Shown: positions 34,844 to 61,622 of the stretch, piece after piece
How positions within the stretch are numbered: position 1 is the first letter of the stretch
Layout of the letters: every line of letters begins with the position of its first letter
From: a virus
Virus record (IMG/VR): IMGVR_UViG_3300020392_000009
Location: 1 to 64,000 of that record
Strand: one strand, 5' to 3'
DNA: 64,000 nucleotides
The notes under the pieces: model-generated
What the model was told of the DNA's origin: nothing
Seen by the model: the letters and a program-made list of their open reading frames with translations, nothing else
Databases searched by the model: none
Translations under genes and position numbers: made by a program

Positions 34844-34844
34844 C

Positions 34845-36140
34845 TTAATAACCTCCTACCATTTTGTGAATCTCTGACCAATCCATTTCAGCCAAATCTT
34901 CCATACTTGGGAGTTCTTCTTCTGCCGCCTTTTGTGCCTTTAGAATTGTTTCTTTTTCAGCAGTCAAAGACTTTCTTAGTTGAGTAAACTCATCTTTTAG
35001 AGATGCTATTTCGGCTTGAGCATCATATTGTGACTTTGCCAAAACATTTTCTCGGTTTGCTTTTTCTGCGTTAAATCTTGCACTAAATTGCTTTTCTAGG
35101 TTATCTAGAGCAATCTTTTCTAGTTGCTCTTGTCGGAAAGACTCGTATGCTTTCTCGATATTTAGGTTAGAAAGGTTTAGTGTATCTAATTCATTATTGT
35201 TAAATGCTTTAACAACAGGAAGTCCACTTGGCTTAGGATTGCCATTATCAATAACAATTCTATCAGCAGGTTCTCCAATTTCGACACCTGCTCCGTCTAA
35301 TGTAGCAACATAGGCTTTATCTGCCATTTTGTCACCATATGCACCTCTTTCCATGTCATCGGTAGGGACATCTTGCATTCTTTCCATGTCTTTCATTCTT
35401 TCCATGTCTTTCATCCTTTCCATGTCTTTCATAGATTCTTTTTCATCATCCATGTTTTCCATCATATTCTCATCTTCCATAGACTCTTTCATGGATTCTT
35501 TATCCTCCATCATTTCAGTGTCCATCATTTCGGCTTCTTCTTTTCGTAGCGTATTGACTTGCTCCATTAGAGTGTCAAGTTCCGCCAATGCTTTTTCTAA
35601 CTTGCTCATATTTTTCACCTGTTTATCTTGCTTTAAAATATCAAATCTTGCTTCGGGATTTATTCCTTTTTCACAAATTGTTACCTCATGCAATTCCAGT
35701 TTGCTTATTTCATTGTAATCTCCTAACTCCGGATGACTTTTCTTTACTTTTTGTAATGCCTGTCCTCCTATGCTAAATGACCTCAATGAACCTTTTCTTA
35801 CGCCTCTTCCTATTTCTTTGGCTTTTTCTATATCATCTCTTAACTTAATTACTACGAAGAAACCAACATCATCTACTTCTGTTTTCCACAATCTCCCCGT
35901 TTTATCTCGATATGATTTTACTACTTCTCCAACTTGAACATTTGAGTGATTTGTCATTACATTTCTAAATTTTGGATTCTGCATATATTTTACTACTGCT
36001 TCTTCTAGAGCCTTTAGTGTAATTAAATCGTTTTGTTTGTCTACGATTTCTATGCTTGCATATCCTCCAATCATTAAATCTTGATTACTTTTTAAGATGC
36101 TAAAGTCGTTGGCTCTATTACTTATCACCGCAGAACTCAT
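34845..36140 (-). CDS. prohead protease (HK97-family) fused to scaffold domain
   Basis: GYAS..VDKQND, NHSNVQVG (His), SFSIGG (Ser), LHEVTICEKGINPEA; acidic coiled-coil C-terminal half ending MDWSEIHKMVGGY. Confidence 0.9.
   Translation of the reverse strand: MSSAVISNRANDFSILKSNQDLMIGGYASIEIVDKQNDLITLKALEEAVVKYMQNPKFRNVMTNHSNVQVGEVVKSYRDKTGRLWKTEVDDVGFFVVIKLRDDIEKAKEIGRGVRKGSLRSFSIGGQALQKVKKSHPELGDYNEISKLELHEVTICEKGINPEARFDILKQDKQVKNMSKLEKALAELDTLMEQVNTLRKEEAEMMDTEMMEDKESMKESMEDENMMENMDDEKESMKDMERMKDMERMKDMERMQDVPTDDMERGAYGDKMADKAYVATLDGAGVEIGEPADRIVIDNGNPKPSGLPVVKAFNNNELDTLNLSNLNIEKAYESFRQEQLEKIALDNLEKQFSARFNAEKANRENVLAKSQYDAQAEIASLKDEFTQLRKSLTAEKETILKAQKAAEEELPSMEDLAEMDWSEIHKMVGGY
35379..35432 (-). 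repeat. 3 x 18-bp coding tandem repeat (MKDMER)
   Basis: TCTTTCCATGTCTTTCAT twice exact, third copy with one mismatch, in scaffold linker. Confidence 0.9.
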
Positions 36141-45917: not shown

Positions 45918-46060
45918 TTCTTCATCCCCTTTGGCTTATCTGCCTGTTCCCAACATCTTCTACAAAAACCAAATGGGTGAACATCTCTTGTCATATAACA
46001 TCTACCGCAGTATTTGAAATTAAGTTTCTGCTTCTTAATTACCCACTCTTTAGTATTCAA
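45914..46060 (-). CDS. small Zn-finger protein (48 aa)
   Basis: Read by hand: ...YCGRC...FCRRCW...; coupled on both sides (TTGA, ATGA). Confidence 0.55.
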   Translation of the reverse strand: MNTKEWVIKKQKLNFKYCGRCYMTRDVHPFGFCRRCWEQADKPKGMKK

Positions 46061-47415
46061 GCCAGTATTCCTCCTACATTTTCTAGTTCATCCATCACTG
46101 ACATTTTACAATTGTCTTTGTATTTCTGTATATCATCCAAGTATATTCCTTCTTTTAGCCAATCAAAACCAACATGGTCTTTATGATTCTCCCACTTCAT
46201 TAATTTAAAGATTTCATCACAACGGCTCTTATACCAATCAGCCTTCTTGTAAGATTTCTTCATTCTAATTAATTCTAACAAAAGTTCTGCATTACCCTTC
46301 TTTAATCTAAAGTGAGGCAGACATTTTGTTAGAAGTTCACTAACATCTGCTTGAGAATAAAAGTTTAAGCGATTAATTAATCTAGTGTCTTGAGGAGATT
46401 TTTGGTCTAGGTGCATACGACCAAATCCTATTGACTTGTGCATTTCTTTCATGAATACCTTTCCTCTTTCTCCAGTAGCAACTAGCCCAACTCTAGGATT
46501 CATATTTCTATCTAAAGTAATATAGCCATCCGAATCAATAAATGCGGCAGTATAAGCCCAAATATTCTTTTTGATAAGAGATGGAACTTTGTAGTAAGAA
46601 CCATTATGTGAAGCAACCTCTAACTTTCTTATTGTCTTAGAAATCATATTTGGGTTTGTTATGTTAAACATATCAACAGGCATCTTTTCATGTATGCCTT
46701 TAGCGGTAATGCCTTGATGTTTTGTTATAGTATTTTCAATAAACTCTAGTTGTCTTTCTTTTTTGCTTTTGTTTAGGGTCTGAGTCTTGACTGCTTTAAG
46801 ACACTCCCTAAATTCTTTTTTTGCTTGCGACATTTCCTTAGATAATTTACTATATTCTTTTGAATAAGCCATTCCTTCTCTATCTAATTCAGCCTCCCAG
46901 TATTTACAAAGCGAATCTACTATGCCTCTTCTAGACTTAATATCTTTCATTTTATTTAGTCTCGATAAATCTTTTTCAGTGAATCTCATTTTCCTAAAAG
47001 GTTGTTTGTAAGGTGCTAACCAAAAGATACTATCAATTGATTTCTCTAAATGCTCACTATAAGCATCTATTACTACATCAATGGCCTTAGACATATTTTC
47101 TCTAAGACTCCCCTTTAATTCTCTACGATTATTTCTCATTTTTTTAACAAGTTCTGGGACAGTTTGTTCATGAATAATATATTGTTTTGGAAAGACATCT
47201 AGCATCTTTCTTGCTTCACTGGCATTAATAGAATATGTTTTAGAAACCAGTGCCAATTCATCCACTTCTGACATTACATAATCCTTTGATACTAAACTCT
47301 TAATTGTTATACTTTCAGGTAAATTACTTACAATTTTACCCTCTTCTTCATTCAGTTCTTTTAGTCTACCAAACTGTTCTTCGGCTTCTTCTAGTTCTTC
47401 GACTGTTAGATTCAT
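46057..47415 (-). CDS. protein with C-terminal LAGLIDADG endonuclease domain
   Basis: AYTAAFIDSDGYI, LLTKCLPHFRLKK; about 280 aa helical N-terminal region. Confidence 0.8.
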   Translation of the reverse strand: MNLTVEELEEAEEQFGRLKELNEEEGKIVSNLPESITIKSLVSKDYVMSEVDELALVSKTYSINASEARKMLDVFPKQYIIHEQTVPELVKKMRNNRRELKGSLRENMSKAIDVVIDAYSEHLEKSIDSIFWLAPYKQPFRKMRFTEKDLSRLNKMKDIKSRRGIVDSLCKYWEAELDREGMAYSKEYSKLSKEMSQAKKEFRECLKAVKTQTLNKSKKERQLEFIENTITKHQGITAKGIHEKMPVDMFNITNPNMISKTIRKLEVASHNGSYYKVPSLIKKNIWAYTAAFIDSDGYITLDRNMNPRVGLVATGERGKVFMKEMHKSIGFGRMHLDQKSPQDTRLINRLNFYSQADVSELLTKCLPHFRLKKGNAELLLELIRMKKSYKKADWYKSRCDEIFKLMKWENHKDHVGFDWLKEGIYLDDIQKYKDNCKMSVMDELENVGGILA

Positions 47416-47424
47416 ATTTATTCC

Positions 47425-48846
47425 TCAAAAGTTTAATCCAAGTAGTCCGTTGTTTCTTGTTGGTTTAGGGTCATCAAATAGCCCCATATTATCTAATAGT
47501 ATGAATTTATCTGATATTTGGTAAGTGGCCGCATTCGCTAAGGCTAGGCTCATAACCATATCGTCATGCGCCCCTACGCCCTCAAACTTACCTCTTTCAG
47601 TAATAGCAAACATAGACAACTCTTCTATCAATGTGGAAGTAACTCTACGGCTTTCTTCATTACCATAGGGAAAGTTCATTTTTTTATTTTCTAAACTCAT
47701 TTGTAGGTTGAGAATTATCTCTTGTTTCTTTTTTCTAGTAGTATTAAAATCATATAAGTTTAAATCAGCAACCTGTCGTAACTCTTGGGTAAATGATTTA
47801 GCAAAAGTGTTCGTCTCAAATAATATTACCTCCGGTCTAAATACTTGATTGATTAGTTTTACCTTCTGTATGTTTTCTCTAAACTCTACATTTTTTGCCC
47901 TGTCTACATAGATGATTGATTTATTTTCTTCTTCATCCATTTCAATCACTGTAATTACATTGTAGTCCCCATCAGTAGAAATAGCAGGGTCAATTCCAAC
48001 ATAGTATTTGTAGCCCTCTCTTTTCATAGGCTTCAAAACTAAACTACTATTTTTTGCCGACTCTAAATATTCCGGATTAAATAGAGAAGTTCCTGTAGAA
48101 ATAGGAACACACATATATTCTCTTGTAAACATTAGTGAACCCACTTCTGCCTTTCTAGCCATAAGAGAATCATAATCCCATCTATTAGGCCATAGTGGTT
48201 CATTAAGAGCATTAAGGCATGGATATGTTCTAAGAGTGTATGCAGGATTTTCTGATAGTTGAGCATAGATATCAGTATAACTAAACGGAGTTCCAATAAC
48301 TCTTAGCGATGCTGAGTGATGAAGTGTCGGTATCATATCACCATAAAACCAATCAGTTACCTTTTGAATACCACTTATACTAAATTCTTTCAAAGGGTCG
48401 TCAATGATAATCTCTTGAGGGTGAAGTCCACGAATCTGTGAACCAACAGAACGCTCTAAAATTTGATTACCATTAGTTAATGTAATATTTCCTATCGCCC
48501 AACCTCTAGGCGGCTTGAATTTTTTAAGCAGAGGATTATTGAATAGTTTATCTATATCCCTCATATGAACCATAGTCTGTTTTTGGTTAGAAGAAATGTA
48601 TAGCATTTGATAGGGAGGCTCTTGAAATACTAAATTCCATACTACCCAAGCATGCATAAATACAGATTTACCGTGACCTCTCGAACAAATTATAACTGTT
48701 CTTTGAGTATCTTTCATAAGTTCTAACCATTCTTCTTGGTGCTTAGCAAACTCCCAACCCAATACATTTTGAAAGAAGTATGGAAATGAGTTTTTAGATA
48801 ACTCCATATCCATTTGATGTTCAAAGTTTAACGCCTCTATATCCAA
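47425..48846 (-). CDS. terL: terminase large subunit
   Basis: Walker A SRGHGKS, Walker B IIIDD, VIGTP, GIDPA nuclease, HDDMVMSLALA. Confidence 0.93.
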   Translation of the reverse strand: MDIEALNFEHQMDMELSKNSFPYFFQNVLGWEFAKHQEEWLELMKDTQRTVIICSRGHGKSVFMHAWVVWNLVFQEPPYQMLYISSNQKQTMVHMRDIDKLFNNPLLKKFKPPRGWAIGNITLTNGNQILERSVGSQIRGLHPQEIIIDDPLKEFSISGIQKVTDWFYGDMIPTLHHSASLRVIGTPFSYTDIYAQLSENPAYTLRTYPCLNALNEPLWPNRWDYDSLMARKAEVGSLMFTREYMCVPISTGTSLFNPEYLESAKNSSLVLKPMKREGYKYYVGIDPAISTDGDYNVITVIEMDEEENKSIIYVDRAKNVEFRENIQKVKLINQVFRPEVILFETNTFAKSFTQELRQVADLNLYDFNTTRKKKQEIILNLQMSLENKKMNFPYGNEESRRVTSTLIEELSMFAITERGKFEGVGAHDDMVMSLALANAATYQISDKFILLDNMGLFDDPKPTRNNGLLGLNF

Positions 48847-48847
48847 A

Positions 48848-49351
48848 TTAATACCTCTTTAAAATTAAATGCCAAGATTTTTCTATCTTATTAGCAGGTT
48901 TAATTCCCCAAACCCGCCCTTTTTCCTTAGCATAATCCGTTATTTTTTTAATTATATTTTTAGGAATAGAATTTAACAGACTTGGTTCTATATTTGTTAT
49001 CTGCCAACCAGTTTTTTCGTTAGCCGCTATCCAACTTGGTGCATTGATGAATACAGCAAGTAGGGGCTTATTTGGAATAACGCTAGCACGATAAGGAACT
49101 AAATCAGTCATGTGGCCTCTAGGAGAACCTTCAATAGATTGAGTTCCTCCAACTATTACATAATCGGGATGCTCCGTCCAACCAGTAGTGGAAATAGTCT
49201 TGTCATTATCATCAACTCTAATAATCCATTTGTTTAAATCGTAAAAAGGAGGTGGTGAACCTGCTCTAACATAAGGCTCATTCGGATTATCAGTATTCCA
49301 CCTTTCTTTCATCTCCTCGAAAGAAAAAATCTCATCCAAAACTTTCGGCAT
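48848..49351 (-). CDS. hypothetical protein with C-terminal tag; weak GNAT-like pattern
   Basis: Ends IEKSWHLILKRY. Confidence 0.55.
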   Translation of the reverse strand: MPKVLDEIFSFEEMKERWNTDNPNEPYVRAGSPPPFYDLNKWIIRVDDNDKTISTTGWTEHPDYVIVGGTQSIEGSPRGHMTDLVPYRASVIPNKPLLAVFINAPSWIAANEKTGWQITNIEPSLLNSIPKNIIKKITDYAKEKGRVWGIKPANKIEKSWHLILKRY

Positions 49352-49359
49352 AATTATCC

Positions 49360-51963
49360 CTACCAAACTCTTTGTCTAAATCTAGCCTTGATTAAATATA
49401 CATGGTCAGTAGTTATACCATAATCTCTACCTATAGATTCATGAGAATCAATTGACTTAACAATGTTCTCTACCTCCATATGACTCAAATCCAAGTTTTC
49501 CTCTTTGTGCATTTTTTCTATTACCAAATCTATGTTATCAAAAGTCAATGGTAAGAACCCATACACGGTTTCTTTTCCTAAAGATTTTCTTATAACATCG
49601 TGCGCTTTTAATAATTTTTTATTAACCATTTTACCGATAGTCAAAGGAGAATCTTGCTTAACACTATCTCTTAATAGTTGTATTAGTTCAAAGTAGGCTT
49701 CTCTTTTATCTCTTTCATCTTGACCGCCTCCAGCAAATAGGCTTTGTTTTTCCTCTAAGGTATTAATAAAATCTAACTTAAATGAGGAACTACCCGTCCT
49801 TGTTTCGTTAGCCCTATCTTCTATTGTTTCTCCTTTTATCTTTCTATCCTTTTTAGAAAAGTCTTGTGTTTCATCCATTATGTTAAACAATAAAAGTGAA
49901 ATAAAACCAAAGGCATCTTTATCTTCTACTCCAAATTTTTTCAAAGAGGTTGCGGCTCTTTTTCCTGCCGCAATAAGTTGGTCATTTACATTAGTGTCAA
50001 TGTCTTGGTAATCTCTTAGATAATCTATAATGTTTCTAAAATCTACTGAACTTATATTTCTAAATCTTCTACTTCCCCTAAAAAACGGACTAGTAATCCC
50101 AGTCTTATTACCTAGTAACTTATTTATTTCCTTAACTACTTTTCCACCAACAGCATTGTAAAAAGAAGGAACAGAAACAGGTAGCATACCTCTATTCATA
50201 GGCTCGTAGTAATATTCCTCAGCAGATTTGAAGAACTTTTTAAGAACTTTTTTTGCCTCGGCTTCGTCAAAGGTTTCATTAAATTTAGGTGGTTTAGGTT
50301 TGAAGGCAGTATCTTTTGCATAAGACTGTATTGCTGAACCTGCCGTTGTATCTTTAAAATCAACCATAGTTTTGTCTTGTCCTCTAGTCGCCCTTGTTCC
50401 AACTGCTTCTCTTGCGCCCATAGGGAATTGGTCTGGGTCACTAACCAATACTAGCGACGACAAATCATTAAAGAAATCTTTAATAAAATTAATATTATCA
50501 TAGTCTATTTTCTTAGAGTAATCTATATTATTTCTGTCTCCGCCATCGCTTCTTCTTAGAGGATAGAACCCGCTTTTTTCAACAAAGTCCCTTGTGCCAT
50601 ATGTAGAATAAAAGGTCTTATCTGCCAAAACAGAAAGGGGTAATGCAAAAGGAAATGTTGAATTAGTTCCATCGGGGTTATCTTCTATTCCTTCTACCGT
50701 TAGTGTATCTTCCAATTCATCTATTAATCTTTCAAAGTCTTGCCTTACATTTATGGTTAAGTCATCTTGTGCCAAAGCATTTTCCAAATAAGACTTTAAG
50801 ATAGTATAGTGTTTTTCTATAATGGCTACAAGTTTTATGTTTCTACTATTTTCCCAAACTAAAAGAGGGTCTGCTTTAGAAGGAATTGATTTTGCCTGCT
50901 CCATAAATTTAGCATAGACTCCTTCTCCCGCTAATTCTTCAAATTCTTCTATTGATTGTTGTAATTCATCTTCCGAAATAGTAGCGCCAGTATATTGACT
51001 ATCTCCCCCAACCGTATTTAGAAAGGCTTGCTCCATAGCCTCTTGCTTTCCACCCGAAATATCTTCTTCTATTGCTCTTTCTTCTGGAGTATCTTTTATT
51101 TCAGTTATTCTATCATAGAGACCTTGAGTTTGCATTAGTCTAATTATCAATAGAACTAACCTCGCTCCTGCATCTGCTACTAGTATATCAGTAAATGGGA
51201 AGTCTGCTATGTAAACAAATTTAGTTAGGTCGTTTTCTAAATTATATCTAATAATAAATTTGTTAGCCTCTTCATTGTTTAACTGCTTCAAAAGAATACC
51301 TAAATCTTTCAAATCATCAAGAAACTTACCTTCTTTTTCTCTAACAACATTAGTCCAAAACTTATACACAGCCTTTCTAGTTTCACCTTTAGAAACATCA
51401 ACTGCTCCCATGAGTTCGCCCAAAGGATATTTTAATTGTCTCTGTTTTGGTTCTACATCTTGTTCTTCTATTCGTTCTATTATGAACATAAGATTATCTT
51501 CTGAAATTGGATTAGACTCGAAAAGACCTGCCCCCAATCTGTTTTCTATGAGTTTCTTTGTTCTATTTTGAACTTCTTTACTAGCATTTATTTTGAAATC
51601 TTCAGGCAGTCTAGTGGTAACTAAAAACCTAGCATCCAGCACTCTACCTCTATTATCCTCTAACATTAGTTTTTGGGAATAGTTCTGTATTTGATTTTCT
51701 AAACTCACTGTATCTAAAACATCCTCAGTTGTTTCTAACTCATCTAGTGTTTTTATTAGCGCATCTCTAAATAATTTTCTTTGTTTTATGTATTCCTTAT
51801 CTGTTCTATCAACATTATTTTGTTCGAGATATTTTTCAGCCCATTCGTTTATAATCTCTTCCTGCTTCCTTCTTTTTTTTCCTCTTGCAGAAATACCGGC
51901 TATGGTTTTTAAATCCTCTTCGCTCCTTTCAACGGCTATGCCGCCACTCTCTATCTTCACCAT
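49360..51963 (-). CDS. large hypothetical protein (possible internal virion protein)
   Basis: 867 aa acidic helical ORF. Confidence 0.6.
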   Translation of the reverse strand: MVKIESGGIAVERSEEDLKTIAGISARGKKRRKQEEIINEWAEKYLEQNNVDRTDKEYIKQRKLFRDALIKTLDELETTEDVLDTVSLENQIQNYSQKLMLEDNRGRVLDARFLVTTRLPEDFKINASKEVQNRTKKLIENRLGAGLFESNPISEDNLMFIIERIEEQDVEPKQRQLKYPLGELMGAVDVSKGETRKAVYKFWTNVVREKEGKFLDDLKDLGILLKQLNNEEANKFIIRYNLENDLTKFVYIADFPFTDILVADAGARLVLLIIRLMQTQGLYDRITEIKDTPEERAIEEDISGGKQEAMEQAFLNTVGGDSQYTGATISEDELQQSIEEFEELAGEGVYAKFMEQAKSIPSKADPLLVWENSRNIKLVAIIEKHYTILKSYLENALAQDDLTINVRQDFERLIDELEDTLTVEGIEDNPDGTNSTFPFALPLSVLADKTFYSTYGTRDFVEKSGFYPLRRSDGGDRNNIDYSKKIDYDNINFIKDFFNDLSSLVLVSDPDQFPMGAREAVGTRATRGQDKTMVDFKDTTAGSAIQSYAKDTAFKPKPPKFNETFDEAEAKKVLKKFFKSAEEYYYEPMNRGMLPVSVPSFYNAVGGKVVKEINKLLGNKTGITSPFFRGSRRFRNISSVDFRNIIDYLRDYQDIDTNVNDQLIAAGKRAATSLKKFGVEDKDAFGFISLLLFNIMDETQDFSKKDRKIKGETIEDRANETRTGSSSFKLDFINTLEEKQSLFAGGGQDERDKREAYFELIQLLRDSVKQDSPLTIGKMVNKKLLKAHDVIRKSLGKETVYGFLPLTFDNIDLVIEKMHKEENLDLSHMEVENIVKSIDSHESIGRDYGITTDHVYLIKARFRQRVW

Positions 51964-51964
51964 A

Positions 51965-54088
51965 TTAACTCTCCCTTAATATCCCAACGCTTTCATCTGA
52001 TAGAGCCTCAAGAGCCTTCTTTGCTTTAGTCGAGCCTCCCCTTCCTAATTTAAATTTCCCTCCAGTAAAGTTCTCTGCAAATAGTTTGACATGGTTCTCA
52101 AATGCAGAAATAATTTCTTTTTTAAGGTTGTTTAAGATTATAGGTATATCTTCTTTTATTTGGTCTGCTATTTTTACATCTCCCGTTTCATCTAATTCTG
52201 CATAAGCATCCAAAAGACCATCAGCCCCCACTACTTCTGCATTAAGACCAATAAAACCAATAAACTCGTCTAATGATAAATTAGGTATAGTAGCGGAAAT
52301 ATCAAATGTATTAACTAACTCTACTAGTCCCTTAGTTTCAGAAATAGAGATTAAATGCTTGGAGAATACATCATCGGTTAAGCCACTTAGTTCCCTCAAT
52401 CTAATAAGAGTGGGATTGTTAAATTGAGTATCTACTGTTCTTACTCTTTTAGCAGGACTTACTTCTCCTAATTTACTTCTAGATGGGGCAAACTCAGAGG
52501 CTCTGTCTTTATATCTGCCCTCTTCTGTTCTTTGTTCTCCAATATCTGCTAATTCTTCGTAGATATCTTTGAATTGAATTACTTCTGTGGGGTCGTCTTT
52601 ATCATATATCTGAGCGTGAGTAGCACCAACGGCTGTATTAGCCATAATTATCTGTCCTGCATCATCTCTTTCATCAGTTGGTTTGTTATTTTCTTCTTTA
52701 CCATTAAAATATACCACATCATATATGTCAGAATACTCATTTTCAATGATTTTTGCCTCAGAAACACTAGGATTATCCCTTAAATAAGCAGGTAAATTAG
52801 CCTTTAATTGGCCTGTTAATCTACCAAAACCTTGCGATAACCTACTAGGGTTTTTCCTATTTTTTACTAAATCAGTAACTTTTCTCTTTTTTTGCTCTCT
52901 TGTTCCAGTTATTTCATACTCTGAAAGGTCTAATCCTTTGTAATTAGTGCCTCCGGACTGTAAAACTTCTACTATTTCTTCAATTAATTTTCTTTCTATG
53001 GCATAATCACTCAATAAGTTCTCTCTTCTAATTACACCTGTTAAAGTAGTTACCCATTTGTCATCAAAATTAGGCCTTAGTATTGTTTTTGCTATTGAGG
53101 ACATAACTAAATCATCTCCTATACCCGAAATCATAACATAATTTTTAATAAATGGCTCATTAGGAATGAATATCTTCTTACTACCTTCAACAGACTCGTT
53201 AATTACTTCTATATACTCTTTTACTGTATTTTCTGTAAATGTTTTAACAGTATATTCTAATCCTAGTATTCTATCTCTTGTCATTCTCAAAGCGTCTTTA
53301 TCAAGAGAAGTCGATGACTCATCCTTAACAAATTTAACGCTCAAATTTCTAATATTTTCATTATAGTAAGTTAAAATGTCCGGATTTGAGTTCACTAGTT
53401 GAATAAATTCGTTAAATCCAGTAAAATCACCACTTTTCTTGTATAATTTACCATCTTTATTGTTCGCACCTATCATTTCTGCAAATTTATTGATTTTATC
53501 TTCGTTTCCTTTGTATGGAGTTATAGTAAAGTAAGGGTTTTGCCTTCTAGTTATAACATATTGCCACATAGTCTGTGCATCGGGGTATCTATTCCACTTT
53601 CCTCCCTTTCCACTAAGCGGAAATTGCCCCGTCTTTGTCAAAAATGCCTCAGTTTCTTTTCTTAATCTACTTTGTTCCGCTAAAAGTTCATCACTAGCAC
53701 CATCCGGCTTCTTTTTAGCAACTTCAACCTTTCTAGTTACATTGTGAAGGTCGGTAATTAGTTTCATTAGGGAATCTTTTGTTTTAGTGGGGCGTTTTAC
53801 TCTCAATTCCATTAATTTTTCCAGTCTTTTTCTTGCTTCTTCCGGATTCAAGCCCTTCTTTTCAGAAAATTTAGCAATTTCTTCAAACAAACTTCTTCTA
53901 TTTGGTGTATCTCCGGAAAGATTATCTAAAAATCTAGAAAATTGCTTGGATTCTGCACTATTTTTGTCTGCATTCTTGAAACTTTCATAAAAATCATTGA
54001 ACATTTGCTCTCTAACTAGAGTTCTAGCCAAAACTTTTACTCTAGTTATGGGTAAGAAGTCCTCTTTTAAAATTTCTAGCCAATTCAA
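51965..54088 (-). CDS. large tagged hypothetical protein
   Basis: 707 aa; starts MNWLEILK (TTG after GGAG). Confidence 0.65.
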   Translation of the reverse strand: MNWLEILKEDFLPITRVKVLARTLVREQMFNDFYESFKNADKNSAESKQFSRFLDNLSGDTPNRRSLFEEIAKFSEKKGLNPEEARKRLEKLMELRVKRPTKTKDSLMKLITDLHNVTRKVEVAKKKPDGASDELLAEQSRLRKETEAFLTKTGQFPLSGKGGKWNRYPDAQTMWQYVITRRQNPYFTITPYKGNEDKINKFAEMIGANNKDGKLYKKSGDFTGFNEFIQLVNSNPDILTYYNENIRNLSVKFVKDESSTSLDKDALRMTRDRILGLEYTVKTFTENTVKEYIEVINESVEGSKKIFIPNEPFIKNYVMISGIGDDLVMSSIAKTILRPNFDDKWVTTLTGVIRRENLLSDYAIERKLIEEIVEVLQSGGTNYKGLDLSEYEITGTREQKKRKVTDLVKNRKNPSRLSQGFGRLTGQLKANLPAYLRDNPSVSEAKIIENEYSDIYDVVYFNGKEENNKPTDERDDAGQIIMANTAVGATHAQIYDKDDPTEVIQFKDIYEELADIGEQRTEEGRYKDRASEFAPSRSKLGEVSPAKRVRTVDTQFNNPTLIRLRELSGLTDDVFSKHLISISETKGLVELVNTFDISATIPNLSLDEFIGFIGLNAEVVGADGLLDAYAELDETGDVKIADQIKEDIPIILNNLKKEIISAFENHVKLFAENFTGGKFKLGRGGSTKAKKALEALSDESVGILRES

Positions 54089-54099
54089 ACGCTCAACTC

Positions 54100-54378
54100 C
54101 TACAAATTGAGTGCTTCTTCAACAGGTTCTAGTAGTTTTTCTAAATTAAAATTAGTAAATCGCTCAACTACCATGTTATTTTCTCTAATAAAAATAGTAA
54201 AGCCCCCTCTTCCTTTTTGTAATAGTTCTAATCTTTTATCTTCAAAGTCAATAAACATTTTAATTCCTGCTTTTCCGTGACCGCCCTTTACTGCATCGGC
54301 TTCAAGTCCTAGTTTAAATGCAAAATGCTCCATAAATTGTCTAGGTAAAAGCATCTTTAGTATATTTTTCCAACTCAT
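54100..54378 (-). CDS. tagged hypothetical protein
   Basis: Starts MSWKNILK. Confidence 0.65.
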   Translation of the reverse strand: MSWKNILKMLLPRQFMEHFAFKLGLEADAVKGGHGKAGIKMFIDFEDKRLELLQKGRGGFTIFIRENNMVVERFTNFNLEKLLEPVEEALNL

Positions 54379-54695
54379 TGTAACTTCTCCTGCATTTGGT
54401 ATAAATCGTATAGGTGGCGTTCAAAGGCATTTTTCTTACGCAGTAAATTACTTCTTTTTGGTTCTTCACTACTATTTACTCCTGCTATTATAGATTCTAA
54501 ATCTTTAATTAATTTTTGATAAGACTTTATGTATTTTCTAAGATATGTTCTTAATCCAATGTCCTCCGCCAGTTCTAAACTCCAATCCACATATTCATCT
54601 CCTGTTCTATCTTCTAAACGCTCAAGAGATTCCTTTAATTGTGATAAATCTTCTTTTAATATATCTTTCCAACTCATTGTAATTTCTCCTGCATT
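54356..54695. repeat. 41-bp direct repeat (54356-54396 and 54655-54695) flanking one tagged gene
   Basis: 38/41 identical by hand alignment; covers MQEKLQ-stop/RBS/MSWK[ND]ILK junction. Confidence 0.85.
54375..54677 (-). CDS. tagged helical hypothetical protein
   Basis: Starts MSWKDILK. Confidence 0.65.
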   Translation of the reverse strand: MSWKDILKEDLSQLKESLERLEDRTGDEYVDWSLELAEDIGLRTYLRKYIKSYQKLIKDLESIIAGVNSSEEPKRSNLLRKKNAFERHLYDLYQMQEKLQ

Positions 54696-55336
54696 CTTTG
54701 TTTAATCTCTAACCATATTTGCGGATTATTTTGTGCTAATACTTCTTGGACTATTTGCATTTGATGAACAATTACGGTATCTTGTCGCCTATGTATCAAT
54801 TTACCCTTAAACTCCATCAAGTATTTTAATGATTCTCTAATCTCTCTAGCAAGTTTAGTTAGAGCATCAATCATCTTAGGGTCTAGGTCATTTCCTAATT
54901 CATCAAAGACCTGTTCTAATCTCATATCCAACTTAGATACATTCCTAGAAAGTAAATCTACTTCATTTACTTCTTTCTTTGCTATCATCATAGCCGCACT
55001 CTCTTGAACAATAGGAGTTAAGTGGTGTTTAAGATGTCTTTGTATTTGTTGTTGTGTAGTATCTAATTCAACCGCTACTTCTTTAGTAGTAATTTCTCCA
55101 TTAGACAAGGCCATTTCTATTTCTTTTCTATTTGGTTCTACGCATAATTTACATTTAGGATTAGAACTCATTTCAAAATCTCCCATATGGTTTCTTTGGT
55201 GTTGTGCCGCAGTTCCGCTTCTCCAACCATATTTTTCATCTAAGTCATCACAAGTAGTAGTGCCACTCTCTAACAAATTTTCTAGTTCTGTTCTATCTTC
55301 ATGTTGGCACATGCCACAACGCTTTCTTGTTACCAT
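54674..55336 (-). CDS. duplicated Zn-finger/HTH protein, candidate terminase small subunit
   Basis: Two CxxC...HxxxH units each enclosing an HTH-like segment, then a helical hairpin. Confidence 0.5.
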   Translation of the reverse strand: MVTRKRCGMCQHEDRTELENLLESGTTTCDDLDEKYGWRSGTAAQHQRNHMGDFEMSSNPKCKLCVEPNRKEIEMALSNGEITTKEVAVELDTTQQQIQRHLKHHLTPIVQESAAMMIAKKEVNEVDLLSRNVSKLDMRLEQVFDELGNDLDPKMIDALTKLAREIRESLKYLMEFKGKLIHRRQDTVIVHQMQIVQEVLAQNNPQIWLEIKQRMQEKLQ

Positions 55337-55337
55337 A

Positions 55338-56729
55338 TTAATTCCTCAAAATATCCATCCATGATTTCAATACTATTCTTTCATCTGTGTTAGGTGCATT
55401 CATACTTTGTAAATCTCTAGTTCGAGTAATCACCGATTGGTTTAGCAAAGCCTTCATAGCATTCTTTGTAAGTTTGAAATTTATTTTTCTAACATCTGAT
55501 AGATTAAACATATCCATTATTTTATTTCTAGAAGTGGGGGAGAAATCAAAATTCTTTTCTCTTAACATTCTAAGAGACTGGGAAGTTTGAAAGTCATTAT
55601 CGTTATATAGTGAAGTATTCCTAAGTAAAGCCTGTGCATACCTCTTTATCTCCGGTATCTTTGCTAATGCTACTGCCTGTGTCTTTTTACTAACAGGAAC
55701 TACTATGTCTTGTAGTCCCTCACTTCTAAAATCAAAGCCCTTCTTTTTATCCTTGATAAGATTCTGCCATGCGGGTTTTCCATCCGGTGCTTTAGATGTT
55801 CCTCTTATCTTTAGTGCTTGCTTAACAAACATAACAATAACTTCGGGTGTAGCCTTACAAGTCACCATTCCAACTTCTCCCGCAGGAGCATCCTTTGTAT
55901 TTAGTTTAGTCAATCTTTCAATTGCCTGCTTTTCTTTGTTACCTATTTTAAATTCAGTTGATTCAAACTCTCTTCTTAATTTATTTACTAATAGTTTACC
56001 ATCTTTCCAAAACGCAGTATTTCTAGTGGACTTAACAAAAAAAGTTTCAAAGGCGTTTAACTTTATCCAATCTATAAAATCATCTTCTCCTATCGGTGCG
56101 CTCCCTACCTCTATTGGTTCTGATACTGCTTGTATTGCATCTTCTAAAATATATTTAAGCCCTCTAGAATCAAACTCGGAACTGGATTTTTCATTGTATA
56201 ATGCTTGATGGGGAATATTTCCGCCATCCATTGTTCCTGTAAACCAAGCGTCGGGGGCTTTAGTTGTGTTATATTTTTTAGCATATTTAGCAGTAGCATA
56301 GTGACCTGTTATTGTTTTAGGTTTCATTGGATTTCCTCTAGAATCTTTTCTAGGCTCACTAAAAACGATAAATGCGGGGTCTAGGGCTATTCCTTCTTTA
56401 CCTACATCCTTTCCTGTTTCAAATAAATCATCCAATACCTTTGCCAAATCAGTAATATCTTCTAAGTCATCATCGCTAAGATAGTTTTTTTGTAAAACTT
56501 TATCCATTGTTTTGATAGCCTCTACTGCCCCTTGACCTATTGCGCCAGCCCTTCTGTTTCTACTCTTTTCTCTAACATAAGTTCCAGTAAGATGATTCTT
56601 TAGAAAGTCAAAAAGAGTTGGAACATTCTTCACTTGCATTTTGCTACCGGAAGTATTCAAACAGGTTTGTTTCCACTTAGCATACTCATTAACAAAATCA
56701 TACTTATCGAGGTTTTGATTGATTTCCAT
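55338..56729 (-). CDS. hypothetical protein with C-terminal tag
   Basis: Ends VLKSWMDILRN; start placed at MEINQ after upstream small ORF (uncertain). Confidence 0.6.
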   Translation of the reverse strand: MEINQNLDKYDFVNEYAKWKQTCLNTSGSKMQVKNVPTLFDFLKNHLTGTYVREKSRNRRAGAIGQGAVEAIKTMDKVLQKNYLSDDDLEDITDLAKVLDDLFETGKDVGKEGIALDPAFIVFSEPRKDSRGNPMKPKTITGHYATAKYAKKYNTTKAPDAWFTGTMDGGNIPHQALYNEKSSSEFDSRGLKYILEDAIQAVSEPIEVGSAPIGEDDFIDWIKLNAFETFFVKSTRNTAFWKDGKLLVNKLRREFESTEFKIGNKEKQAIERLTKLNTKDAPAGEVGMVTCKATPEVIVMFVKQALKIRGTSKAPDGKPAWQNLIKDKKKGFDFRSEGLQDIVVPVSKKTQAVALAKIPEIKRYAQALLRNTSLYNDNDFQTSQSLRMLREKNFDFSPTSRNKIMDMFNLSDVRKINFKLTKNAMKALLNQSVITRTRDLQSMNAPNTDERIVLKSWMDILRN

Positions 56730-56739
56730 TCCTTTGTAA

Positions 56740-56910
56740 TCAATCGTTTTCTTCTTTATCCTTTTTCTTTTTACCACGCTTTTTTCCCCCATAAGTTATG
56801 TTAAATAATTTTCCTGAAACTGCCGAAGGAGAAGTAGTAGTGACTGCTCCCGCTTCTTTCTCTATACTTTCCTTATTAGTCTTTTCTTTAAGAATGTCTT
56901 TCCACTTCAT
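56740..56910 (-). CDS. small tagged protein (56 aa) missing from ORF track
   Basis: Read by hand: MKWKDILKEKTNKESIEKEAGAVTTTS...KKRGKKKKDKEEND. Confidence 0.7.
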   Translation of the reverse strand: MKWKDILKEKTNKESIEKEAGAVTTTSPSAVSGKLFNITYGGKKRGKKKKDKEEND

Positions 56911-56914
56911 AATA

Positions 56915-57574
56915 TCACTTATGCCACCTAAGCGAGAATTCCGTGTCTGCGTTAATTCCCGACTTTTTTGCTATTTCTTTAAAAAGAATATTTTGTTCTC
57001 TAACAAATAGTGCTTCAATAGAATAATAAGAAGGATATTTTAATGCTATTTCTGAAATTGTCTCAAGTATTAAAACAGTTTTTCCATTTTTATAAACTTG
57101 TAGGCCATTTATGCTAAATATTTCGTTGGTGTCCTTTGTCTTATTAAAGGTTCTTTCAATTCTATAATAAGTCCCATTTATCTCAATATTTTCATTGTCA
57201 CTTTTTTCTTCTTTAAGCATTTCTAACGCCTTGCAAGCGACACTTTCCGGAATATTATCGGGTTCGTAAAAATGATATATTAAGAATTCTACTATAGGAA
57301 AACTATAGTCTCTATTATTTCTTATAACAAAACTTTTGCCGTCGCCATCAGCAATAGGCTCAACCTCTATTATCAGTTCACCATATTTACTGTAGTTCTC
57401 ATGCCAACCCTCTTTCCATGTTTTTTCAACAACGGGCTTGTAATTTTTTAATTTGTTCGCTAATCTTTGTAGTTCTCTTTTACAATCATCATCTTCGATA
57501 TCTATATCAATATCTTCTATCTCTTTTACACGGCCTTGCGTGATTACATTTTTAAGAATATCTTTCCATTTCAT
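56915..57574 (-). CDS. constant-leader/variable-body paralog 6
   Basis: MKWKDILKNVITQGRVKEIEDIDIDIEDDDC. Confidence 0.8.
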   Translation of the reverse strand: MKWKDILKNVITQGRVKEIEDIDIDIEDDDCKRELQRLANKLKNYKPVVEKTWKEGWHENYSKYGELIIEVEPIADGDGKSFVIRNNRDYSFPIVEFLIYHFYEPDNIPESVACKALEMLKEEKSDNENIEINGTYYRIERTFNKTKDTNEIFSINGLQVYKNGKTVLILETISEIALKYPSYYSIEALFVREQNILFKEIAKKSGINADTEFSLRWHK

Positions 57575-58170
57575 TAGAAAGCCCCATATCTCTCTAGTGT
57601 GTCAATAGCCCAAGTCTGTTCTAAATGCCGAAGTAACTCTTTAATAGTGTTTTTATTTTCTTTTATTCTCTCATCGGTAAGAACACCCGTCACACTAACT
57701 TTTGAGTCTGGACCGCTACCCCTTCTTTCCCAACTTATGAAAACCTCTAACGCAACATCTCCATATTCAGTATCTCTTTTTTCTCCTAACCTTTCAAATA
57801 AAGTATAAATTTTAACAGCATATATGAATTCTTGAACACCAAAATCGGCAACAATAAAACCATGTTTCCGATAGGTTTCCTTAGCCCTATTTTGCCTGTT
57901 TATGCTTTCAGTGTTTATGGTGTATTGTTCAGTTAAATCTTTTTTAAGAAGGCAAGCGGTTTCTTCATCTAAGTCTGGGACAGGTTCATAAAGCCATCCC
58001 TCGATTAGTAAGTTGGATGCTGGTTTTTTAATAGAAACACTACTAAGAATCTTAATAAGCCTGTCATACCATCTACGACAATCATCTTCATCTATATCAA
58101 TATCTATATCTTCTATCTCTTTCACTCTCCCTTGAGTAATAGCATTTTTTAAGATATCTTTCCAATCCAT
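57574..58170 (-). CDS. constant-leader/variable-body paralog 5
   Basis: MDWKDILKNAITQGRVKEIEDIDIDIDEDDC. Confidence 0.8.
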   Translation of the reverse strand: MDWKDILKNAITQGRVKEIEDIDIDIDEDDCRRWYDRLIKILSSVSIKKPASNLLIEGWLYEPVPDLDEETACLLKKDLTEQYTINTESINRQNRAKETYRKHGFIVADFGVQEFIYAVKIYTLFERLGEKRDTEYGDVALEVFISWERRGSGPDSKVSVTGVLTDERIKENKNTIKELLRHLEQTWAIDTLERYGAF

Positions 58171-58838
58171 TAATATCCCCCAAACCGTTTAGATATCACA
58201 TACAAAAAAGAACCCTCTCCATAATTAACATCTGTTCTAGTAGTATGTTCTGAAATTACATTACTTATTGCTCTATCTACATACTTAACATAATCATCAA
58301 AGAATACTCTATTATCACAATGTTTAGAAAATTGTTTTATCATTTTTGCATATGGCTCATAGAAAGAAATTAACTTATTATAAACTTCTTTATCTGTATC
58401 ATTAGGATTAGTAAATTCTTTTATTAAATTATCCGTTGATGCTTCCATACTATCTTCAAAAAGCCCAAAAAATACCGCCCATTCTTGATATTTGGGTAGT
58501 TTTACCGAAATACTAAAAACATAGTCCCTTCCCTTATTGACATAAAAAATAAATATTGGAAAACGACCATCTTCCTTCCTAAGTTTAAAACTAATACCAT
58601 CATAATTTTCTAATTTGTCTTTTAGTTCACAAGCCAGTTCTTCTGAAACTAAATTTATATCTCCGTATGTTGCAAATTTTCTGTGCAATCTGTGTGTAGG
58701 TTTGTATGATTTTATTATTTGGTGTAATCGTATTAGCCACCTTCTGCAATCATCATCTTCTATATCAATATCTATATCCTCAATTTCTTTCACTCTACTT
58801 TGAGTAATAACATTTTTTAAGATATCTTTCCAAACCAT
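58170..58838 (-). CDS. constant-leader/variable-body paralog 4
   Basis: MVWKDILKNVITQSRVKEIEDIDIDIEDDDC. Confidence 0.8.
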   Translation of the reverse strand: MVWKDILKNVITQSRVKEIEDIDIDIEDDDCRRWLIRLHQIIKSYKPTHRLHRKFATYGDINLVSEELACELKDKLENYDGISFKLRKEDGRFPIFIFYVNKGRDYVFSISVKLPKYQEWAVFFGLFEDSMEASTDNLIKEFTNPNDTDKEVYNKLISFYEPYAKMIKQFSKHCDNRVFFDDYVKYVDRAISNVISEHTTRTDVNYGEGSFLYVISKRFGGY

Positions 58839-59527
58839 TAATATCCCCCGAAACTGCTCTTTATAGCCCTTTCAAAAACATCATCGTCAAGGTTAATATT
58901 ATCGTCAAATCTTCCGCCTAATTGCTCAGAACGCATTAACAGCACTTTTTTCACCCTTCTTGCTACATGACTTATATAATTATCAAAGAATATTCTATTC
59001 TTACAATGTTTAGAAAATTGTTTTATCATTTTTCCATATGGCTTATAGAAAGATACTAAGTCATCAAAAAGTTGTAGAAATGGTTCATCCGGTTTAATAA
59101 ATTCCTCTAGCAATATTCGAGGAAAACTACCACCAGCATGTGTTGTTATCGACCATGCCCTATTTTTAGGCTGTCCTGCCAAAATTATAAGAGTATGGCC
59201 TAAAGTTCTAGGGTTATAAAAAAATCCAGCCCCATCTTCTACCTCATCATCAAGACTGGGAGCAAAGCCGAGATATACCGCAGAACCATCATGGTTTTCT
59301 AATTTGCTTTTTATTAGACAAGCCTGTTCTTCTGTAACTCCAGTTATATCTCCATTTGTTACAACCTTACCATGCATTTTGTGTGTAGGCTTGTATGATT
59401 TTATTATTCGTTCTAATTGTATTAGCCATCTGCTACAATCATCGTCGTCAATATCTATATCAATATCCTCTATCTCTTTTACCCTACTTTGAGTAATAAC
59501 ATTCTTGAGAATATCTATCCAATTCAT
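58838..59527 (-). CDS. constant-leader/variable-body paralog 3
   Basis: MNWIDILKNVITQSRVKEIEDIDIDIDDDDC. Confidence 0.8.
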   Translation of the reverse strand: MNWIDILKNVITQSRVKEIEDIDIDIDDDDCSRWLIQLERIIKSYKPTHKMHGKVVTNGDITGVTEEQACLIKSKLENHDGSAVYLGFAPSLDDEVEDGAGFFYNPRTLGHTLIILAGQPKNRAWSITTHAGGSFPRILLEEFIKPDEPFLQLFDDLVSFYKPYGKMIKQFSKHCKNRIFFDNYISHVARRVKKVLLMRSEQLGGRFDDNINLDDDVFERAIKSSFGGY

Positions 59528-59528
59528 A

Positions 59529-60209
59529 TTACTCCCCCCCCTTATACTTACCATTAAATTTCTTTCTTGCTTCTTTCGATGAATCCGGTATTTTTCTAAC
59601 CCTTTCCATGTAATCCTGCATCAATCTTCTAGTGCCTGTAAAATCCCAAGAACAATGCCTATATAACCTCTCAAGAAATCTAAATAAATTTTTATCGGAA
59701 TCAGCAAAATCGTCAAAATCTACCCTTTCAATATGAATTTCAATAAACGATTCGTCTAATTCTTCAAAAGTATTTCTTGGCCAAGATTCCATAAATCTAA
59801 GACTAAGGCTAAGATAAGGTTTTATAGTCCGTTCATACCTATAAGGGTCGCCTTCTTCTTCAACAACAGATAGTCCCATTCTTACTATACTTTCTCCTCT
59901 TTTATTGCTTCCCTCAATCCTAGTATGAGAATTGAAAGGAATAGGCAAGTCTCCCTTTTTATTTACTACCAAAGTTTTTTCTATCGCTTCTTTAAATTCA
60001 CAGGCTTCTGCTTCTGTTATACCTTTACCAACCTTATTGTCTGTTAAGTTATCCATTCCCGCGTCTTTCTTAGCAAAGCCTACAATAATATCTTGAAGTT
60101 GTTTAAGCCATCTAAGACAATCATCATCTTCTATATCAATGTCTATATCCTCAATTTCTTTTACCCTACTTTGGGTAACAGTTTCCTTTAAGATATCCTG
60201 CCACCTCAT
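59529..60209 (-). CDS. constant-leader/variable-body paralog 2
   Basis: MRWQDILKETVTQSRVKEIEDIDIDIEDDDC. Confidence 0.8.
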   Translation of the reverse strand: MRWQDILKETVTQSRVKEIEDIDIDIEDDDCLRWLKQLQDIIVGFAKKDAGMDNLTDNKVGKGITEAEACEFKEAIEKTLVVNKKGDLPIPFNSHTRIEGSNKRGESIVRMGLSVVEEEGDPYRYERTIKPYLSLSLRFMESWPRNTFEELDESFIEIHIERVDFDDFADSDKNLFRFLERLYRHCSWDFTGTRRLMQDYMERVRKIPDSSKEARKKFNGKYKGGE

Positions 60210-60214
60210 ATTAA

Positions 60215-60859
60215 TCACTCATGCCAACTAAATCCAAATTCTCTTGCGTCATAATATCCTGAGTATTTATATATTCCCATAGTATCAATTTTATTATCGT
60301 TTTCATCATAAATACCAGTAAAGAACTCACCATTTGACCACGATAAAATTATAGAAAAGGGTTTACCTTTCTCAGCAATAATGAGTTCATTGATATTATA
60401 TTGATAGTCAAAATTAAAACTTCTCATTATTTCCCAATCTACTCCATCGTGTTCAAAATCATATATTTTATATGTATCACCTACAGCCGATTCATTTCTT
60501 TGATGGCTTTTTAAAATTTCCAATGCTTTACAGGCTACGGGTTCGGGAACAGGATTATAGAGGAATTTAGCACTTTCAAAAAACTCTGAAAATTGTTTAT
60601 TTAATTTTTTTTGAGATAATGAAAAATTTTTTTTATTGACCGCAGGATTGTTATCCTCTATTATTTCAAAATATTCTGCATTTCTTGGCCAACCTGCCTT
60701 CCACCGTTCTTCTAAAAGAAGATTGTAATTTTTCAATTTATTTGCCATTTGCTGTAGTTTTCTATTACAGTCATCATCCTCAATATCAATATCTATATCT
60801 TCGATTTCCTTAACCCTATTTTGGGCTATCGTTTCTTTAAGGATATCTTGCCATGACAA
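60215..60859 (-). CDS. constant-leader/variable-body paralog 1
   Basis: MSWQDILKETIAQNRVKEIEDIDIDIEDDDC. Confidence 0.8.
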   Translation of the reverse strand: MSWQDILKETIAQNRVKEIEDIDIDIEDDDCNRKLQQMANKLKNYNLLLEERWKAGWPRNAEYFEIIEDNNPAVNKKNFSLSQKKLNKQFSEFFESAKFLYNPVPEPVACKALEILKSHQRNESAVGDTYKIYDFEHDGVDWEIMRSFNFDYQYNINELIIAEKGKPFSIILSWSNGEFFTGIYDENDNKIDTMGIYKYSGYYDAREFGFSWHE

Positions 60860-60860
60860 T

Positions 60861-61622
60861 TCAATCCCTCAAATGATTAGACCAACTCTTACTAACCCAA
60901 TCAAAATCTTTAGGGAACGGGGAAATAAATTCTCCTAATATTTGAGCAAGGGCATTCATTTCTATCGGGTATATCTTGTCGCCTTCGGGCAGACTTCTAT
61001 CAATAATCATTCTTTCAATGACTCCTAATTTGACCATATCTTGGGTTACATTAAAGGTGTAATTTATCTTAAATTGCTTATCTTTTACTAGTTCTTTGAG
61101 AGTATTTTTGACCTTTTTTTCTGTTTCGTTTATTTTAACTCTATCTATTTCACTATCCATAGAATCTTGTAAATCTTCTCTTAATTCATCTAAGGCAGAA
61201 TATAAGACTTTTCTAACTTCAGACATCGCTTCATCAGTAACCAACTTTGCTATGTTTTTTATTACTTCTATTTGTTTAGGAGTAAATTTAAATTGTTCTT
61301 TTTCGGGGTCGGGTTCTTCTTCCAATACTGCTATTTCTCCTAAATCTGCTATCTCCTGCAAATCTTCTTGAAACTGCTCATCTTGTAATTTATTTTGAAA
61401 TACATTAAGAGGCGCTGATAAAGCCTCTAACATAACTTCCTCTATCTTAGGAACAGATAAAAATTCAGTTCCTTCTAATTCTCTAATGTATTTGCTTACT
61501 AAATTTTTAGAGGTTTCTATGTAAATACCCCTACTTTTCGCTTGACTAGCCAAATTCTGCAAAACTTTTAACAATCTATTCATAAAAGGATTTCTTTCTT
61601 TTAATATATATTTCCAACTCAT
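60861..61622 (-). CDS. helical protein tagged at N-terminus and possibly C-terminus
   Basis: MSWKYILK ... VSKSWSNHLRD. Confidence 0.65.
   Translation of the reverse strand: MSWKYILKERNPFMNRLLKVLQNLASQAKSRGIYIETSKNLVSKYIRELEGTEFLSVPKIEEVMLEALSAPLNVFQNKLQDEQFQEDLQEIADLGEIAVLEEEPDPEKEQFKFTPKQIEVIKNIAKLVTDEAMSEVRKVLYSALDELREDLQDSMDSEIDRVKINETEKKVKNTLKELVKDKQFKINYTFNVTQDMVKLGVIERMIIDRSLPEGDKIYPIEMNALAQILGEFISPFPKDFDWVSKSWSNHLRD

Follow-up and report, generated by a model that had tools for sequence, protein, structure and literature searches.

A tandem array with a constant leader and shuffled bodies in a putative magrovirus-like virus of marine archaea: candidate capsid-addressed cargo

A tandem array of six paralogous genes, g1 to g6, occupies positions 56915-60859 of the window analyzed here, i.e., the 64,000-nucleotide (nt) stretch that forms the first part of the 91,671-bp IMG/VR record IMGVR_UViG_3300020392_000009 (CheckV completeness 99%). 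The encoded proteins carry a conserved leader of 33 residues on strongly divergent bodies, and related viruses exchange, gain and lose these bodies via recombination inside the leader DNA. By analogy with the internal proteins of T4, we propose, at slightly less than even odds (about 45%), that the array proteins are capsid-addressed and probably injected accessory proteins.

The initial annotation had described six adjacent, tightly packed paralogs with a common leader, and this arrangement was borne out. All six genes lie on the minus strand and abut one another, with neighbors either overlapping by 1 base (TAATG) or sitting 1-5 nt apart, and the whole genome contains no further copies. BLAST clustering of the bodies defined five families, i.e., A (162-193 amino acids, aa), B (g1 and g6), C (g3 and g4), D (g2) and E (g5). 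The array opens with g6 (60215-60859, 214 aa, C-terminal FSWHE), which starts at a TTG codon that is kept in nine contigs. It is followed by g5 (59529-60209, 226 aa, C-terminal KYKGGE), g4 (58838-59527, 229 aa, C-terminal FGGY), g3 (58170-58838, 222 aa), g2 (57574-58170, 198 aa, C-terminal ERYGAF) and, as the last gene, g1 (56915-57574, 219 aa, C-terminal LRWHK). The true starts of g4 and g5, as judged by consistency with the leader, are the ATG codons at 59527 and 60209, both internal to longer mechanical open reading frames (ORFs). Mean pairwise identity dropped from 81% over the leader to 24% over the bodies. The two closer pairs that had been singled out are real, g1 and g6 sharing 34% and g3 and g4 41% of their body residues. 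The bodies had been called hypervariable; their divergence is indeed strong, but it is not free variation, since they fall into recurrent families.

The leader is encoded by codons 1-33 of each gene (minus strand; g6, 60761-60859; g5, 60111-60209; g4, 59429-59527; g3, 58740-58838; g2, 58072-58170; g1, 57476-57574), and 23 of these 33 residues are invariant in the six-protein alignment. A constant leader of about 35 residues had been anticipated, which is slightly too long. It consists of an amphipathic helix (W-x-D-I-L-K-x-V-I-T-Q), the tripeptide R-V-K, an alternating acidic strand (E-I-E-D-I-D-I-D-I), a run of acidic residues and, finally, a Cys, with a net charge of -5.5 to -8.5. Its opening is not specific to the array: residues 1-8 (M-x-W-x-D-I-L-K, hereafter the tag) also head about 20 other ORFs. 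The acidic strand and the Cys are private to the array. After the leader Cys, every body opens with a helix, and a later helix bears the E-x-x-A-C motif that had been pointed out as a second conserved Cys. This motif was found in all six array proteins and exactly once per protein in the whole set of 132 distinct leader-bearing proteins, although it formed no part of the pattern used to collect that set. Its position is set by the body family, at residues 57-71 in four families and at residues 106-120 in the family of g1 and g6.

Identical leader residues are encoded by codons that differ synonymously in 41% of cases. The leader is thus conserved as a protein alone, and it is selection on the peptide that keeps it constant. 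The same synonymous divergence rules out gene conversion or recent duplication as the cause of this constancy.

Estimates of nonsynonymous (dN) and synonymous (dS) divergence revealed different regimes along the locus. Flanking genes had dN/dS ratios (omega) of 0.03-0.25, whereas those of the bodies were approximately 0.5 in three ortholog pairs, with a median of 0.69 over 78 pairs, seven of which reached an omega of at least 1. Leader dN was about 0.1 as against a dS of about 1.5, i.e., near saturation. This shows that the bodies are under relaxed or partly diversifying selection and that the leader is strongly constrained. The description of a diversifying family is therefore supported by the elevated body ratios, while positive selection is not demonstrated.

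The array occupies a slot that begins, in all array-bearing relatives, with a tagged 253-aa gene (60861-61622, minus strand; starting MSWKYILK and ending SWSNHLRD). It ends with a stretch on the same strand (55338-56910; 93% nucleotide identity to the relative G001) containing a small tagged ORF (56740-56910) and a conserved 484-aa gene. In G001 (92.8 kb), the flanking genes are 93-95% identical to those of the window and the array 68-90%. The slot reads A A A A D B C C in G001 (eight genes), compared with B E C C D B in the window. Copy number ranges from 6 to at least 8 among close relatives, and order and content differ across contigs, so that the array was far from invariant and can be regarded, as had been suggested, as accessory and fast-turning-over. 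One order was found twice, in L012 and L038, which were assembled independently; this speaks against chimeric assemblies.

Leader and body of a given gene have separate histories. The body of g4 is orthologous to its counterpart in G001 (dS 0.15), whereas the leader is not (dS 0.82). Amongst 83 close-allele body pairs from different contigs, median dS was 0.16 in the body and 1.54 in the leader, and leader dS exceeded body dS more than threefold in 76 of them. The mean identity profile of 60 pairs was 49-59% upstream of the start, 78-80% over nt 0-60 of the leader, 88-94% from nt 60 onwards and approximately 90% in the body; on the 3' side it was 83-78% in the leader of the next gene and 53% beyond that leader. 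Further, the 3' half-leader of a gene had its nearest neighbor in the same body family in 75% of cases (27% expected), as compared with 39% for the 5' half. A 5' half-leader that begins with the TTG codon, S-W-Q-D-I-L-K-E-T-I-A-Q-N, is nearly identical at the DNA level in nine contigs and is joined there to bodies of families A, B, D and E. In all seven of these contigs for which at least two array genes were listed, it heads the first listed gene, and in the comparison of the window with G001 it forms one alignment block with the upstream 253-aa gene. The 5' half-leader is thus bound to its position in the array, and the 3' half moves together with the body. Because the 3' half tracks the body family and the 5' half does so far less, crossovers are placed in the middle of the leader, with cassette junctions at about nt 45-120, around the DNA coding for K-E-I-E-D-I-D-I-D-I. 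Diversity of the array therefore stems mainly from the shuffling of the five body families, not from hypermutation. The D-I-D-I-D-I strand had been tentatively interpreted as a second-level signal. The leader does behave as a detachable signal, but the junctions fall in this very stretch, and a role at the DNA level is equally well supported.

A second, small cassette slot lies at 54100-55336, between a 220-aa DNA-binding protein and a 92-aa gene (L012 1812-3499; L013 2933-4529). It contains one gene in the window and two different ones each in G001 and G002. The ending ...MQEKLQ precedes the next tag in the 220-aa gene, in the 100-aa gene of the window and in the 88-aa gene of G001 and G002; the exceptions are a 73-aa gene of G002, which ends in KEKLQ, and a 98-aa gene of G001, which has no such ending.

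The leader is found in a narrow set of marine sequences. An exhaustive profile search with the 48-residue N-terminus against 1.84 billion representative proteins recovered no more than 29 clusters (50% identity), 28 of which (proteins of 33-247 aa) matched the leader at the N-terminus, the other being a 1,082-aa acidic-repeat outlier (E = 1e-5). A word-indexed search yielded 80 clusters at 90% identity, all of them unnamed proteins from marine metagenomes. The similarity of these leaders is beyond chance. Pattern scans located the leader in two further IMG/VR records and 33 metagenome contigs. In cellular genomes the same pattern gave eight single chance matches in unrelated bacteria and archaea, with no provirus and no clue to the host. 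No match was obtained by tblastn against the GenBank phage collection, and Pfam and PHROG searches of the six proteins returned nothing significant (best E values 0.16 and 0.007, respectively, below the curated cut-offs). Sequence profiles found nothing below E = 0.05 amongst PDB sequences, and the ESM Atlas gave no usable match.

AlphaFold2 models were built for g3 (model m42cb7482d7ee) and g6 (model m772a959c9cb1), with a mean predicted local distance difference test score (pLDDT) of 69 and 73 and a predicted template modeling score of 0.70 and 0.71, respectively. In both models, the leader (residues 1-27 in g3, 1-28 in g6) has a pLDDT below 50 and consists of a short helix (residues 3-13) followed by coil, the confident part begins with a helix at the conserved Cys31, and the body has a pLDDT of 70-94. 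The leader is thus predicted to be structurally detached from the body. The modeled body folds differ, that of g3 being mostly helical and that of g6 combining a helix with antiparallel sheets. Foldseek found no match to either model in the PDB at E <= 1e-3, and the best VIA-align Z scores against 48,161 chains, 4.8 for g6 and 3.8 for g3, were within noise, so that neither search linked the bodies to a known structural protein. A PsbP/Mog1-like sandwich was considered for g6 because of a loose clustering of its structure matches, and was rejected as unconvincing. The single match in BFVD, an unnamed viral protein of 220 aa (E = 8e-4, TM 0.42), may be a member of the same family and gives no function.

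The same design recurs with a different leader sequence in a more distant relative. Using the 484-aa gene, we located the slot in five further genomes. One of them, the complete relative IMGVR_UViG_3300030012_003086 (G005; approximately 71% identity in the protease-scaffold protein), carries seven tandem paralogs (L135 496-4419) between homologues of the 253-aa and 484-aa genes. Their leader is uniform across all seven copies and comprises a tag (W-W-[N/D]-I-[I/L]-K), Q-x-S-R, a strand of alternating hydrophobic and acidic residues ([V/I]-N-L-D-W-D-E-E), an acidic run, a Cys and a helix, followed later by P-E-x-V-A-C or a close variant. In four other complete relatives, no array was detected by profile searches; two of these, G003 and G006, were inspected at the slot, which contains small tagged genes only. 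Because the leader is uniform within a genome yet different between clades, all copies would have to fit one common, co-evolving partner. Family B has relatives among the G005 bodies (P-E-x-V-A-C; C-terminal L-D-W-R).

The genomic setting bears on what this partner might be. The window has a GC content of approximately 33%, and its minus strand at about 8-64 kb encodes morphogenesis genes, i.e., a tail tube protein, a portal, an ATP-ligase-domain protein, a large terminase and a head-maturation protease-scaffold fusion; the nearest relatives of the major capsid protein are those of the haloarchaeal tailed viruses HCTV-1 and HVTV-1. The rest of the genome, on the plus strand, has genes for PolB, RFC, an ATP-dependent ligase, a UvrD helicase and a chaperonin of the thermosome type (Cpn60_TCP1). 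Relatives of the virus come exclusively from marine metagenomes. Size, gene content and the marine origin of these relatives fit a magrovirus-like tailed virus of marine archaea, the host being presumptive. The magrovirus traits present are a double-stranded DNA genome of the ~90-100 kb class (here a 91.7-kb record), PolB, RFC, ligase, chaperonin, a halovirus-like head module and a marine source. Magroviruses infect Poseidoniales, an archaeal group that ranks with the most abundant ones in the surface ocean. The viruses themselves have been seen in metagenomes alone, and most of their genes have no assigned function.

Amongst all ORFs of the genome, the tag, in the form M-x-W-x-[D/N/E]-I-L-K, starts 26, including the six array genes. 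All of them share the strand of the head genes and fall within 29770-64011, and the tag is absent from the tail module (8-29 kb), from plus-strand genes and from the replication half (64-91.7 kb). Several of the approximately 20 tagged ORFs outside the array are very basic. A 707-aa protein (51965-54088, minus strand) starts with M-N-W-L-E-I-L-K-E-D-F-L-P-I-T-R-V-K-V, i.e., with the tag and with R-V-K at residues 15-17, and the middle part of the leader may thus have relatives outside the array.

The tag resembles a part of the head maturation protease-scaffold fusion (34845-36140, minus strand; PHROG head maturation protease). The C-terminus of this protein, MDWSEIHKMVGGY (M-D-W-S-E-I-H-K-M-V-G-G-Y), is similar to leader residues 1-8, and its core, M-D-W-x-[D/E]-I-H-K, is kept in the same register as the tag in all 16 protease-scaffolds compared, i.e., those of this virus and 15 relatives. 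In this virus, D-F-S-I-L-K-S (residues 12-18) and R-F-D-I-L-K-Q (residues 165-171) flank the protease domain as a pair of brackets. In the same 16 sequences these brackets are kept as D-F-x-I-L-K-[S/N] and [R/K]-F-D-I-L-K-Q, while the adjoining linkers vary. The D-I-L-K at leader residues 5-8 shares I-L-K with the bracketing motifs, where cleavage is so far only predicted. In P22, phi29 and HK97, the inner surface of the coat is bound by scaffold or protease C-termini, and protease-scaffold fusions release themselves by self-cleavage. The brackets and the scaffold C-terminus are accordingly candidate self-cleavage and coat-binding sites.

A second capsid signal, in the form of body endings (FGGY, YGAF and KGGE) that would copy the scaffold ending VGGY, was considered and rejected. 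The same codons constitute the Shine-Dalgarno sequence (GGAGG or GGGGG) of the next gene (34843-34860, 57574-57590, 58170-58186, 58838-58854 and 59529-59545), so that translational coupling accounts for the Gly-Gly endings that these genes share. A scan for bacterial promoters and terminators showed no excess of sites; these models are bacterial and uninformative for an archaeal virus, and the result is consistent with one operon.

We propose that the common partner of the leader is the assembling head, because residues 1-8 match a genome-wide tag that is confined to the head-assembly block, and because this tag copies the scaffold C-terminus and shares the [D/S]-I-L-K of the protease brackets. 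The tag would mimic the coat-binding C-terminus of the scaffold and end in a protease site. Tagged proteins would be loaded into the procapsid, trimmed there by the head protease and delivered into the host with the DNA, where their variable bodies would act on variable host targets. The confinement of the tag and its likeness to the scaffold and protease motifs appear to favor this capsid reading over its rivals, though not decisively.

The closest parallel is provided by the T-even internal proteins, a diverse set that counters host defenses and shares only a capsid-targeting sequence (PMC3012670, Rao and Black, 2010, citing Repoila et al., 1994). Like those of T4 (IPI, IPII, IPIII and Alt), the array proteins are diverse small proteins with a short constant N-terminal peptide, and their locus is polymorphic among close relatives (6 versus 8 copies, in varying orders). 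The T4 peptide ends in a protease site; the leader tag ends in I-L-K, which also occurs in the motifs bracketing the protease domain, and may be related to the scaffold and protease in a similar way. The role as injected counter-defense proteins is likewise shared, though it is only proposed for the array. The two systems differ in several respects. The array proteins have no sequence or family relationship to the T4 proteins (Pfam, PHROG) and are known from sequence alone; their host is presumably archaeal, and the protease is of the HK97 type and fused to the scaffold. Moreover, their leader has three times the length and two parts, the generic tag being followed by an acidic strand and Cys private to the array, and mid-leader recombination junctions are documented for the array from population data.

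Two further head-associated systems offer partial parallels. In encapsulin cargo-loading peptides and the C-termini of HK97-family protease-scaffolds, as proposed for the array, a short disordered terminal peptide addresses unrelated proteins into an HK97-fold shell. The array tag would mimic such a scaffold C-terminus, its binding being presumed by analogy; unlike these peptides, it is N-terminal and occurs on about 26 viral ORFs rather than on a few enzymes. The ejection or inner-body proteins of phiKZ and SPN3US are tandem paralogs inside the head; they are substrates of the prohead protease and enter the host by ejection (PMC5694885, PMC7411985). The array is likewise a tandem paralog family, but the phiKZ and SPN3US families have no long invariant leader, are encoded by core genes that are not shuffled, and are backed by virion proteomics.

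Several observations weigh against capsid-addressed cargo. Packaging, cleavage and ejection of these proteins are deductions from sequence, and the resemblance between tag and scaffold is a motif of 6-8 residues that was noticed post hoc. The strongly acidic leader is unlike the basic T4 internal proteins and would be awkward beside packaged DNA. A cut after I-L-K would free just 8 residues and leave the acidic strand unexplained, as are the two invariant Cys, and the tag also heads other proteins that lack an obvious capsid role. In addition, no effector activity can be named for bodies without a recognizable fold or family, and an arms race is not demonstrated, body omega being mostly below 1.

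A more specific version, which we hold to be possible but doubtful, is that of a two-part address. The tag W-x-D-I-L-K would load the protein into the capsid and be removable by the protease, the acidic strand and Cys pair would be retained to hold or activate the payload, and the leader DNA would serve as the recombination joint at which viral populations swap payload bodies.

Amongst the alternatives, the one that survives best, which we nevertheless consider unlikely, is that the proteins act as adaptors in the infected cell, with no packaging. The leader would dock all paralogs on one viral machine (ubiquitin-like conjugation enzymes, the chaperonin or a protease), and the bodies would select host targets, as modeled by the variable target choice of the F-box and BTB adaptor families of eukaryotes and poxviruses. 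A constant docking part joined to a variable recognition part fits this architecture, and so do a leader that is uniform per genome and clade-specific, as expected of a common co-evolving partner, and its detachment from the body in the AlphaFold2 models. The two invariant Cys might take part in thioester or metal chemistry, and the virus does encode both a Cpn60_TCP1 chaperonin and a ThiF/E1-like enzyme (Pfam E = 8e-17; genome 77828-78448, L138 13828-14448). The neighbors of the latter, in the plus-strand half, include a small ORF and a TFIIB-zinc-ribbon protein, and Pfam gave no confirmation of JAB or Ubl parts around it. The tags, however, are confined to the head-assembly block and absent from the strand of the E1 and chaperonin genes. 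Structure searches gave no E2, E3 or adaptor fold, and the resemblance to the scaffold C-terminus and protease flanks is left unexplained.

It is less probable still that the leader docks interchangeable host-binding or decoration heads on the surface of the tail or capsid. Branched tailspike systems, in which secondary receptor-binding proteins carry docking peptides (the SP6/K1-5-like tailspikes and the arrays of Rak2-like jumbo phages), do match the array in their constant N-terminal peptide, interchangeable bodies and cassette turnover. They are located in tail modules and have binding folds, whereas the array lies in the head/packaging block, upstream of the terminase and portal genes, and no tagged ORF occurs at 8-29 kb. 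The array bodies are small (approximately 130-215 aa) and without a beta-helix, propeller, lectin or Ig-like match, and a location on the virion surface is difficult to envisage for the ~20 further tagged ORFs, several of which are very basic.

Cassette exchange at a conserved junction is also typical of polymorphic toxins (CdiA-CT, Rhs), in which a constant delivery part is joined to a variable C-terminus and recurrent families are shuffled across strains. Unlike these, the array has no immunity genes between its cassettes and no intervening ORF on the coding strand, and its proteins are small, set in a virus and without a detected toxin domain.

We regard as very unlikely the notion that the N-terminal helix is an amphipathic membrane-binding helix through which the family acts at a host or virus-induced membrane (entry block, egress or superinfection exclusion). 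W3, I6, L7, V10 and I11 do fall on one face of helix 3-13, and the string WKDILKNA of the g2 leader (58146-58167) is identical to residues 3-10 of frog dermaseptin-PS3 (PMC6115755). This identity is almost certainly due to chance, though the string has been shown to be able to form an amphipathic helix. A helix of 8-11 residues followed by a run with a net charge of about -8 would bind anionic membranes poorly, the proteins have no transmembrane segments, and the scaffold and protease-flank resemblance would again go unexplained.

That the leader matters mainly as DNA, its GATAT-rich stretch coding for D-I-D-I-D-I acting as a recombination handle and the peptide having no addressing role, is the least likely of these alternatives: the junctions do map near this stretch and the second slot is bounded by a repeated junction of ...MQEKLQ and tag, but the contrast between leader dN and dS shows that the protein is the target of selection, the design persists in the G005 clade with another sequence and no GATAT repeat, and such a handle would follow from the repetition of the leader rather than replace its function as a protein.

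Two features of neighboring morphogenesis genes were observed in addition. The match to the large terminase (region 46057-49366, minus strand) is restricted to a 473-aa ORF (47425-48846; profile positions 256-699), which is preceded by a 172-aa ORF and followed by a 452-aa ORF with a weak HNH-endonuclease match, and the terminase gene may thus be split or invaded. There are also two genes with an ATP-dependent ligase domain. One encodes an 829-aa protein (36198-38687, minus strand) between the portal and the protease, and the other a canonical three-domain ligase in the replication half (L139 862-2397).

The magrovirus literature that was checked makes no mention of paralogs, tandem genes, an N-terminal motif, this family or the tag, and a literature search found no capsid-targeting system in archaeal viruses. 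The locus represents a natural case of modular evolution, in which a constant peptide is encoded by synonymously scrambled DNA and the same DNA is the crossover point for cassettes. If capsid-addressed cargo is the correct reading and the leader is a capsid address, it would provide one sequence rule for the packaged, probably injected, proteins of magroviruses, and possibly a loading tag for HK97-fold shells. On the same condition, inhibitors of Poseidoniales defense systems would be sought first among the five body families. Should the two-part address prove true, the array would be the first capsid-cargo and injected-effector system described for archaeal viruses.

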